From contig JBDRMB010000015.1 of assembly GCA_043812455.1 (NCBI GenBank), positions 1-56,162 on the forward strand: a stretch of DNA of 56,162 nt, written 5' to 3'. Positions 41,368 through 43,017 of the stretch are shown here, piece by piece (positions within the stretch are counted from its first letter, which is position 1; every line of letters starts with the position of its first letter). The position numbers and the translations under genes were made by a program. Below the pieces are notes generated by a model. The model was not told where the DNA came from. It was given only the letters and a program-made list of their open reading frames with translations, and made no database searches. The stretch is from an archaeon (lineage in GTDB: Archaea; Nanobdellota; Nanobdellia; Woesearchaeales; GW2011-AR9).

Positions 41368-41524
41368 TTTTGAAAGAGAGTTTTTTAGTGTAGCTAAAGG
41401 TCTTGAAACCAAACTGGAAGTCAGGGAAGGGTTTGTTAAGAAGATTCAGGAACAGGCAGAGGAATGGATTGATAACAAATTAAGATTTGTGATACTTGGG
41501 TTGAAAGATAGAAGAACTAAATAA
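41351..41524 (+). CDS. Putative small protein (57 aa), not in ORF track
   Basis: MGRKIDFEREFFSVAKGLETKLEVREGFVKKIQEQAEEWIDNKLRFVILGLKDRRTK; overlaps the radical SAM 3' end. Confidence 0.5.
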   Translation: MGRKIDFEREFFSVAKGLETKLEVREGFVKKIQEQAEEWIDNKLRFVILGLKDRRTK

Positions 41525-41534
41525 AAATAAAAAA

Positions 41535-41744
41535 TGGGCCTACCCGGACTCGCAAAAAAGCTGCACTTTCTTTAAATTATTAAGCCGGCTTAATACTTGC
41601 ACCGGGGATCCTCGCCATTCTGAAAAAAAGCAAGCTTTTTTTTGAAAATTAAGTTTACTTAATTAGTCAAGGCGATATCATATGCAGCGCGTAGCTGCGA
41701 CCGAAAATGGTCACATTTTCGCGTAGCTACTAGACCACAGGCCC
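41535..41744 (-). tRNA. tRNA-Val(GAC) with three introns (about 20/21, 37/38 and 59/60)
   Basis: Acceptor GGGCCTG/TAGGCCC-A, anticodon stem TCGCC/GGCGA with TT-GAC, T-stem CCCGG/CCGGG. Removing 43 nt (41682-41724), 47 nt (41618-41664) and 47 nt (41549-41595) yields a 73-nt cloverleaf. Confidence 0.88.
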
Positions 41745-41810
41745 AAACTTTTAAGAAAAGTTTGATCAAAACACGTGTGGCGTTCGTTCACTTCGTGAAC
41801 TCAACCACAC
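41744..41810. repeat. Two hairpins in the probable pre-tRNA 5' leader
   Basis: CAAACTTTT-aag-AAAAGTTTG and GTGTGG..GTTCAC-ttc-GTGAAC..CCACAC. Confidence 0.6.
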
Positions 41811-41880
41811 CATTTTTTATCAGATGTTCCTAAAAGTGAAATCAAAAAGCTTATATTCTTATATAAATTTTCTTATCGTG

Positions 41881-43017
41881 ATGACACATAGTGAAGATCA
41901 CCATTATCACTGGTGGAGATATTTTCGTGGGAAAGAAATGAACCAAATTTATATCTCAGTAGCTTTACGGTCATTAGCAATTTCTTTGATTAGTATCTTC
42001 GTACCGATGTACCTTTACAATGAGTTAGGGTATACTTTAGCTGAAACGTTAGTGTTCTATATTTTTTATGCAGTAATCTTTGCCATTAGTACACCTTTCA
42101 CTGCAAAGTTTGCTTGCAAATATGGATTTAAACATAGTGTGTTGTTAAGCGCACCTATGTATGTTATGTACTTTTTTCTTTTATATCAATTAGATACATA
42201 TCAAATTCCCTTAGTTCTAATCGCTGGACTTTTAGGACTAGGAATGTCATTTTTCTGGATGGGAATGCATTTAGAATTCAAAAAGGTCAGTCATAAAAAT
42301 CATCGGGGTGAAGAGGTTGGGAAAAGGGAAGCTGTAGCAATCTTAGCAACTTTACTTGGGCCATTAGCAGGTGGAGCACTAATTAAATTTGTAAATTTTC
42401 ATATTGTATTCATTTTAGCTAGTGTTCTATTATTAATTTCAGCATTATTCTTGTTTGCAAGCAGTGAACGGCATGTACCATATCATTTTTCTGTCAAAAG
42501 TATTTTTGACAAACGTTATTGGAGAAGTTCATTATTCTTTGTTTATCGAGGAATGTTCGCTATGACTAACGGAGTCATTTGGCCGCTATTTATTTTTATG
42601 AGTTTAAGTGATTATTTTACAGTTGGAATATTAGGTTCAGTTGCAGCGATAGGCACTTCAATATTGATGGTATTTACTGGAAAATTGAGTGACCATAAAT
42701 TTAAGAAACGGACTATTATCAAATGGTTTGTTCCATTTGAATCTTTATCTTGGATAGTAAGAGGTTTCTTGACTACATTTTCTGGATTTTTAGGAGTTAC
42801 TATGTTTCATTCTATCACTTACGGAGCAATGTCTTCACCAATGTCTGCCAGAGAATATAATCATACTAGGGATAACGCTGTCGAATATTTTATTACTAGA
42901 GAAATATTTATTTGTTTAGGAAGAATTTTGGTATTATGTTTCTTATTGTTAACAGCAAGTTTTGTTTCCAGCTTTGTCTTAGTAGGAGCTGCTAGTTTCT
43001 TAGCAGTGTTGTTTTAA
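41881..43017 (+). CDS. MFS transporter
   Basis: Multi-TM; RGEEVG...LLGPLAGG; GKLSD. Confidence 0.85.
   Translation: MTHSEDHHYHWWRYFRGKEMNQIYISVALRSLAISLISIFVPMYLYNELGYTLAETLVFYIFYAVIFAISTPFTAKFACKYGFKHSVLLSAPMYVMYFFLLYQLDTYQIPLVLIAGLLGLGMSFFWMGMHLEFKKVSHKNHRGEEVGKREAVAILATLLGPLAGGALIKFVNFHIVFILASVLLLISALFLFASSERHVPYHFSVKSIFDKRYWRSSLFFVYRGMFAMTNGVIWPLFIFMSLSDYFTVGILGSVAAIGTSILMVFTGKLSDHKFKKRTIIKWFVPFESLSWIVRGFLTTFSGFLGVTMFHSITYGAMSSPMSAREYNHTRDNAVEYFITREIFICLGRILVLCFLLLTASFVSSFVLVGAASFLAVLF

Follow-up and report, generated by a model that had tools for sequence, protein, structure and literature searches.

A tRNA-Val(GAC) gene with three predicted BHB introns in a woesearchaeal archaeon

The minus strand of positions 41744-41535 of the window, by which we mean the whole 56,162-nt stretch of DNA analysed, very probably carries a real tRNA-Val(GAC) gene. 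It is the only such gene detectable in the genome, and its three BHB introns would be removed by a predicted EndA/RtcB splicing pathway. The gene is 210 nt long. Its introns measure 43, 47 and 47 nt: the first interrupts the D-loop (20a/21), the second the anticodon loop at the canonical 37/38 position, and the third the T-loop (59/60), so that the two outside the anticodon loop are non-canonical. Three-intron tRNA genes are already known from the literature on Thermoproteales, as are disrupted tRNA genes from that on DPANN archaea, and the present gene is a well-supported further case. The strongest line for the gene structure is comparative, drawn from the sequences of orthologues in the same family, and is taken up after the gene itself has been described.

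Gene structure and splice junctions

The structure of the gene and the boundaries of its introns are read directly from the DNA. In the list below, gene position 1 is window position 41744, and the numbering counts down the minus strand.

41725..41744, minus strand: exon 1, gene positions 1-20, 20 nt; acceptor 5' strand, U8-G9, D-stem 5' strand and D-loop to 20a
41682..41724, minus strand: intron 1, gene positions 21-63, 43 nt; D-loop 20a/21; G+C 53%
41665..41681, minus strand: exon 2, gene positions 64-80, 17 nt; A21, D-stem 3' strand, position 26, anticodon-stem 5' strand and loop positions 32-37 with GAC
41618..41664, minus strand: intron 2, gene positions 81-127, 47 nt; canonical 37/38; G+C 19%
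41596..41617, minus strand: exon 3, gene positions 128-149, 22 nt; position 38, anticodon-stem 3' strand, variable loop, T-stem 5' strand and T-loop 54-59
41549..41595, minus strand: intron 3, gene positions 150-196, 47 nt; T-loop 59/60; G+C 34%
41535..41548, minus strand: exon 4, gene positions 197-210, 14 nt; U60, T-stem 3' strand, acceptor 3' strand and discriminator A73
41519..41534, minus strand: T-rich run, T6 A T5 A T3, directly 3' of A73

Joining the exons by their coordinates with a script gives a product of 73 nt and 60% G+C, which ARAGORN calls as tRNA-Val(gac). With the introns out, a canonical cloverleaf is restored with all stems intact: the acceptor stem has 7 bp, the anticodon and T stems have 5 bp each, and the G53-C61 pair is there. 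The initial annotation had described a 210-nt gene that reduces to a 73-nt tRNA-Val(GAC) cloverleaf with introns in the D-, anticodon and T-loops, and this description is borne out, the placement in the loops also by intron-free orthologues. It had further described introns of 43-47 nt, each with two hairpins, and a perfect palindrome. The lengths agree and the hairpins are seen, and the palindrome is 18 nt long, occupying gene positions 150-167 in intron 3. The gene as read from the sequence does not encode CCA. The T-rich run behind A73 has the look of an archaeal terminator and may act as one.

In the unspliced window neither ARAGORN nor Rfam detects a tRNA at this locus, whether Rfam is run at the gathering threshold or with permissive E values. 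The intron option of ARAGORN, which covers one canonical intron only, also misses the three-intron gene. Contigs from two other, distinct studies contain the intron-bearing DNA with 0 differences, one (X2) spanning 41564-41765 and the other (X3) 41457-41721. The gene is therefore not an assembly artefact. One of the studies whose DNA contains the locus also supplied two metatranscriptome runs, and these gave nothing on the stretch, which has no bearing on expression. On the opposite strand nearby, at window positions 41828-41952 (+), there are sub-threshold Rfam matches with E values in the range 0.02-1, among them a C/D-box snoRNA-like match (E ~0.9) and a U6-like match (E 0.024). They overlap the start of a 397-aa membrane-protein open reading frame (41824-43017) and, being below threshold, are probably chance matches.

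In the archaeal BHB motif, each bulge sits 3' of its central-helix strand, and all three junctions of the gene show this arrangement. At each, the central helix has 4/4 pairs and there are two 3-nt bulges on opposite strands, which together make up the BHB core. At intron 1, D-loop GUAG pairs with intron CUGC, the bulges are CUA and AUA, and the inner helix is CGCG/CGCG. At intron 2, UUGA of anticodon-loop positions 32-35 pairs with UCAG, the bulges are CUA and AAU, and the anticodon stem itself is the exon-side helix. At intron 3, UGCA of T-loop positions 54-57 pairs with UGCG, both bulges are AGU, and the exon-side helix is the T-stem. Every helix and bulge of the BHB-like geometry first proposed for these junctions is thus present. 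Cutting after the second nucleotide of the bulge reproduces the exact sequence of uninterrupted orthologues.

The three motifs differ in their outer helices. Counting central pairs, exon-side helix and intron-side helix, introns 1, 2 and 3 score (4,2,4), (4,5,1) and (4,5,1). Intron 1 has the strict hBHBh' form, which calls for 2 bp or more in each outer helix (here 2 and 4 bp), and introns 2 and 3 do not. These two have the relaxed hBH form because their intron-side helix is only 1 bp, the exon-side helix being 5 bp. In both, the 5' bulge opens onto two hairpins and there is no continuous helix. A fold of the precursor constrained to the three BHBs comes to -59.6 kcal/mol compared with -67.6 for the unconstrained minimum, and the minimum-free-energy fold of the whole precursor lacks the BHB of the anticodon arm; both results carry little weight for a 210-nt AT-rich RNA.

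Orthologues, covariation and the A18/G55 elbow

Orthologues were sought in 114 genomes of the same family with a 14-nt motif that runs across the D-arm of the tRNA. The motif was found in 22 of the 114, and all 22 genes parse as tRNAs, 21 of them Val(GAC) and one Ala(CGC). The orthologues from the 20 other genomes have from zero to three introns, always at the same three sites. Counting the present gene, the 21 Val(GAC) genes are distributed as follows.

No intron: 6 of 21 (G006, G013, G083, G084, G010, G018)
D-loop intron only: 3 of 21 (G016, G070, G032)
Anticodon-loop intron only: 3 of 21 (G031, G080, G085)
T-loop intron only: 2 of 21 (G012, with an intron of 13 nt, and G021)
D-loop and anticodon-loop introns: 2 of 21 (G062, G022)
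D-loop and T-loop introns: 1 of 21 (G061)
Anticodon-loop and T-loop introns: 1 of 21 (G082)
Three introns: 3 of 21 (the present genome, G026, G076)

The D-loop intron is therefore missing from 11 of the 21. In G082, exon 1 runs straight into exon 2, and both have the same sequence as in the present gene. Over the whole gene, the exons of G082 match at 70 of 73 positions, while the two introns it shares match at 31/47 (intron 2) and 38/47 (intron 3). The three-intron gene of G026 matches at 66/73 in the exons and at 32/43, 29/47 and 24/47 in introns 1, 2 and 3. In both comparisons the exons are more conserved than the shared introns. Valine tRNA genes with three introns at these same sites are frequent in the family (L129, L135, L139, L155, L032 and L044). 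A series of orthologues with zero to three introns at fixed sites is good material on intron gain and loss.

The set was then widened by another 30 loci, in which the motif has G18. Of the 52 loci that entered the parser, 50 were parsed and 2 were not. Among 67 introns in 48 parsed Val/Ala genes, the central helix is paired 4/4 in 52 and 3/4 in 15; the parser demanded at least 3/4 pairs, so that these BHB counts are somewhat inflated, though the covariation described below is unaffected. Shuffling the same 67 introns leads to an expectation of 1.8 helices paired 4/4, compared with the 52 observed. Of the 19 T-loop introns in the family, only 5 have an intron-side helix of at least 2 bp.

The G18/U55 contact at the elbow is near-universal in tRNA. 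The present tRNA has the D-loop AGUAGCUA and the T-loop UGCAAGU, and relative to the paralogous Val(UAC), its G18 has gone to A together with U55 to G. The two changes move together through the family. In the 50 parsed Val/Ala genes, A18 occurs with G55 in 22/22 (loci L025-L046 of the family Val/Ala set) and G18 with U55 in 28/28. The same swap is seen in the tRNA-Thr(UGU) of the same genome (G000:C10:15368-15461) and in the tRNA-Ala(CGC) of G116. No description of an A18/G55 swap was found in the literature searched. Position 37 of the present tRNA is also unusual in being U; in the 21 A18-type Val(GAC) genes it is U, or C in one. With the gathering threshold and default filters, Rfam reported only one of four intronless A18/G55 Val(GAC) orthologues (L046, L027, L045 and L039), and the three it missed score 45.8-54.2 bits with laxer filters, above the 29-bit cut-off.

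These exon positions lie in the central helices, where exon and intron bases covary. Where the exon has A18, the opposing intron base is U (9/9), and where it has G18, the opposing base is C or U (12/12). In the T-loop, G55 is opposite an intron C or U (7/7) and U55 is opposite A (11/12).

These comparisons bear on whether the locus is instead a tRNA pseudogene, the remnant of an old Val(GAC) gene that three hairpin insertions have disrupted, with another tRNA doing the decoding. We regard that as very improbable. It could draw on the odd A18, G55 and U37, on the relaxed BHBs of introns 2 and 3, and on a genome that is only 93.6% complete. However, the same A18, G55 and U37 are common to intronless orthologues with the Rfam scores just given, and each insertion keeps a 4-bp central helix that covaries with the exon. 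The exons have stayed nearly identical to those of G082 while the shared introns diverged. A pseudogene would be expected to have broken stems or lost identity elements together with a functional copy elsewhere; here all stems of the spliced product are intact and the copy has not turned up. The initial annotation had proposed a check for another tRNA-Val(GAC), which was run, and no second gene was found in the 93.6%-complete assembly by any method (ARAGORN, Rfam, or the strict and relaxed scans described in the last section), even though GUU is the commonest valine codon. Of the 14486 valine codons in stop-free frames of at least 300 codons, 8695 are GUU or GUC. The only other valine gene found is a Val(UAC) on contig C20.

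Two other accounts concern the insertions themselves, and we give each of them only a minimal chance. One takes them as copies of a small mobile, MITE-like element with two hairpins, not as dedicated introns, to which the pair of hairpins in each insert and the 18-nt palindrome in intron 3 would lend some color. Against this, a blastn-short search of the three introns against the whole genome finds each intron itself and otherwise only matches of at most 18 nt with E of at least 0.1. The inserts also occupy precisely those BHB-competent sites that are in use in other tRNAs and genomes as well, and the homologous introns in G082 and G026 are inherited, not recent copies. A mobile origin of the introns in the distant past, for which there is still room, would not conflict with splicing. 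The other account accepts the gene and disputes its splice sites or the number of introns, for example through shifted boundaries or other loop sequences. Introns 1 and 3 can indeed slide by 1 nt, but the product is unchanged, and uninterrupted orthologues fix junction 1 (G082), junction 2 (G012, G006, G013) and junction 3 (G016, G062). A functional tRNA-Val(GAC) gene with three introns at the boundaries listed above is by far the most probable reading.

Splicing endonuclease, ligase and the proposed pathway

The genes for the two expected enzymes are present in the genome, both outside the window. The only EndA gene, at G000:C39:29591-30379 (+), encodes 263 aa with one N-terminal domain (PF02778, residues 92-158) and one catalytic domain (PF01974, residues 169-255), preceded by an acidic, poorly conserved N-terminus of ~90 residues. 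A search with the EndA protein itself found no paralogue or β subunit in the genome, and in 40 other genomes searched, there was exactly one match in 38 and none in 2. The closest relatives of this EndA are from Candidatus Woesearchaeota or Nanoarchaeota, mostly from groundwater, and the present genome is Woesearchaeota-like (DPANN). The RtcB ligase is encoded at C3:23724-25040 (568 bits).

The best match to a solved structure is the catalytic α subunit of the N. equitans enzyme (PDB 3IEY chain A, E = 1e-34), with the α4 enzyme of M. jannaschii next (2e-31). From residue 24 onward the EndA protein runs collinear with the M. jannaschii chain to its end, with a single 1-residue gap, and its catalytic Tyr, His and Lys align with those of both enzymes. 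The spacing between Tyr and His is 10 residues, as in M. jannaschii, where N. equitans has a 6-residue K/R-rich insertion. The same spacing holds in 77 of 80 related EndAs, the other 3 being unmatched by the search pattern. The basic L3 insertion (N. equitans residues 90-98) was not found in the present EndA, which appears to be without the L3 loop. With a single gene, one N-terminal and one catalytic domain, and the Tyr-His-Lys set, it would be of the α type, an assignment made by gene count only.

The initial annotation had inferred an endonuclease of relaxed specificity, to be typed as α2, α2β2 or ε2. The enzyme found is neither of the types taken as relaxed, α2β2 or ε2 with a CSL or ASL loop: there is one α-type gene per genome, with M. 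jannaschii spacing and no N. equitans basic insertion. Relaxed specificity is therefore read from the substrates and not from the type of enzyme. This leaves a mismatch, since the EndA resembles the strict M. jannaschii type, yet introns 2 and 3 are of the relaxed hBH form. According to a published rule, non-canonical or relaxed introns are handled by loop-bearing EndAs only, and the present genome puts that rule to a clean natural test.

Several known systems share parts of this picture. In Thermoproteales, multiple-intron tRNA genes have up to three introns (Sugahara et al. 2008, as cited by Fujishima and Kanai 2014, PMC4033280). As that account presents them, the resemblance extends to several short BHB introns per gene, some of them non-canonical, and to the large share of the tRNA set that is interrupted. 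The host here differs in being a mesophilic, AT-rich (~34% GC) DPANN archaeon with a 1.1-Mb genome, and in having a single α-type EndA where Thermoproteales have an α2β2 enzyme with a Crenarchaea-specific loop. Within DPANN, Kaneta et al. 2018 (PMC5829648) describe α4-type EndAs, with one Woesearchaeota and one Pacearchaeota genome among those analysed, and report disrupted tRNA genes and incomplete predicted tRNA sets. According to the same source, the N. equitans loop is renamed L3, and L3-bearing α4 enzymes of DPANN are linked to the disruption of tRNA genes. The phenomenon is the same here, disrupted tRNA genes with an α-type EndA. However, where that account ties broad specificity to L3, the present EndA and 77 of its 80 relatives keep the M. 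jannaschii length.

The N. equitans EndA is like the present one in the aligned catalytic Tyr, His and Lys of its α subunit (3IEY chain A), but it is an α2β2 enzyme whose structural β subunit is not found here. Its loop (residues 90-98), as described by Hirata et al. 2012 (PMC3488258), holds the catalytic His, and that K/R-rich loop is absent from the present protein. The ε2 EndA of ARMAN-2 (PDB 4FZ2; Fujishima 2011, Hirata 2012) is similar in being a DPANN endonuclease that handles non-canonical introns. Unlike the two-domain, 263-aa protein here, it is a three-unit protein with an ASL loop and a chain of 395 residues in 4FZ2.

Putting the gene and the enzymes together, we infer that the tRNA is cleaved, ligated and used in translation by the following route. 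A precursor of ~210 nt would be transcribed from the gene, and the D-, anticodon and T-loops would each pair with the 3' part of an intron, forming the BHBs. EndA, encoded on contig C39, would cut inside the six 3-nt bulges; RtcB, encoded on contig C3, would ligate the four exons; and CCA would be added last. The 73-nt product would be a normal cloverleaf with A18/G55 in place of G18/U55 and with U at position 37.

A broader idea is offered tentatively, as one that may well turn out to be wrong. Woesearchaeota would splice relaxed BHB introns out of three loops in most of their tRNAs, using a single α-type EndA that has none of the published specificity loops L1, L2 and L3, and its broad specificity would depend on a fourth basis not yet described. 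As part of this scheme, Val-GAC, Thr-UGU and Ala-CGC would have swapped G18/U55 for A18/G55 and could not carry pseudouridine 55, and the introns that pair with these positions would have coevolved with the swap.

Other tRNA genes and tRNA-like pieces

The genome is 1.14 Mb with ~34% GC and is estimated to be 93.6% complete. Standard tools find few tRNAs in it, 9 with ARAGORN and 16 with the Rfam tRNA model. Our intron-aware scan required all 7 bp of the acceptor stem to pair, U8 and A14 to be present, the T-stem to include G53-C61, the T-loop to fit the consensus (U or G at 55), and D and anticodon stems to form; each of the three loops could hold one BHB intron or none. In this strict form it finds 19 loci, the tRNA-Val(GAC) among them, and 0 in the reversed, non-complemented genome. 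Introns interrupt twelve of the 19: 8 genes have one, 2 have two and 2 have three. Besides the tRNA-Val(GAC), the gene with three is a tRNA-Arg.

G000:C17:42230-42378, plus strand: tRNA-Arg(UCU), with introns of 28, 17 and 29 nt in the D-, anticodon and T-loops (strict scan)

With the reversed genome as control, a relaxed scan, allowing one acceptor mismatch and one anticodon-stem mismatch, still returned 3 loci that parse fully along with 9 anchors. Since this control is noisy, extra loci were accepted only after each sequence had been inspected. Manual reading of the anchors added 9 further tRNA-like loci, 8 of them longer than a mature tRNA. Seven other anchors were dropped as coding sequence or noise (C18, C27:49962, C30, C37, C39:37278, C6:28022 and C9:92). 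The 19 strict loci and the 9 read manually bring the total to ~28 tRNA loci, ~20 of them interrupted.

It had been suggested from the first that this lineage may hide many more tRNAs, and the count of at least 19 by the intron-aware scan, compared with 9-16 by standard tools, agrees with that. Standard tools recover only 9-16 of the ~28 tRNA genes in the genome. Interrupted tRNA genes are common in this archaeal group, and standard finders therefore miss most of its tRNAs. It follows that metabolic and "missing tRNA" inferences for Woesearchaeota are unreliable without intron-aware searches.

Partial tRNA-like pieces also occur near valine tRNA genes. In the present genome, a second T-arm 3' part and acceptor 3' strand follow directly after the tRNA-Val(UAC) gene, at G000:C20:4916-5057 (+). 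The piece has an insert resembling a T-loop intron and ends in the same 14 nt as tRNA-Val(UAC). No 5' half matching it was found in the assembly. In G013 (contig C23, locus L007, 513-870), an intact Val(GAC) gene has a half-tRNA-like 5' piece upstream and a 3' piece downstream. The scan grammar, with long introns allowed, did not parse an outer tRNA from these two halves. An intact Val(GAC) gene in G032 (contig C7, L015/L031) is flanked by a half-tRNA-like 3' piece. The pieces in G013 and G032 could be parts of a split, nested or permuted tRNA. The flanks of the G013 gene are complementary to each other over 9 + 6 bp.
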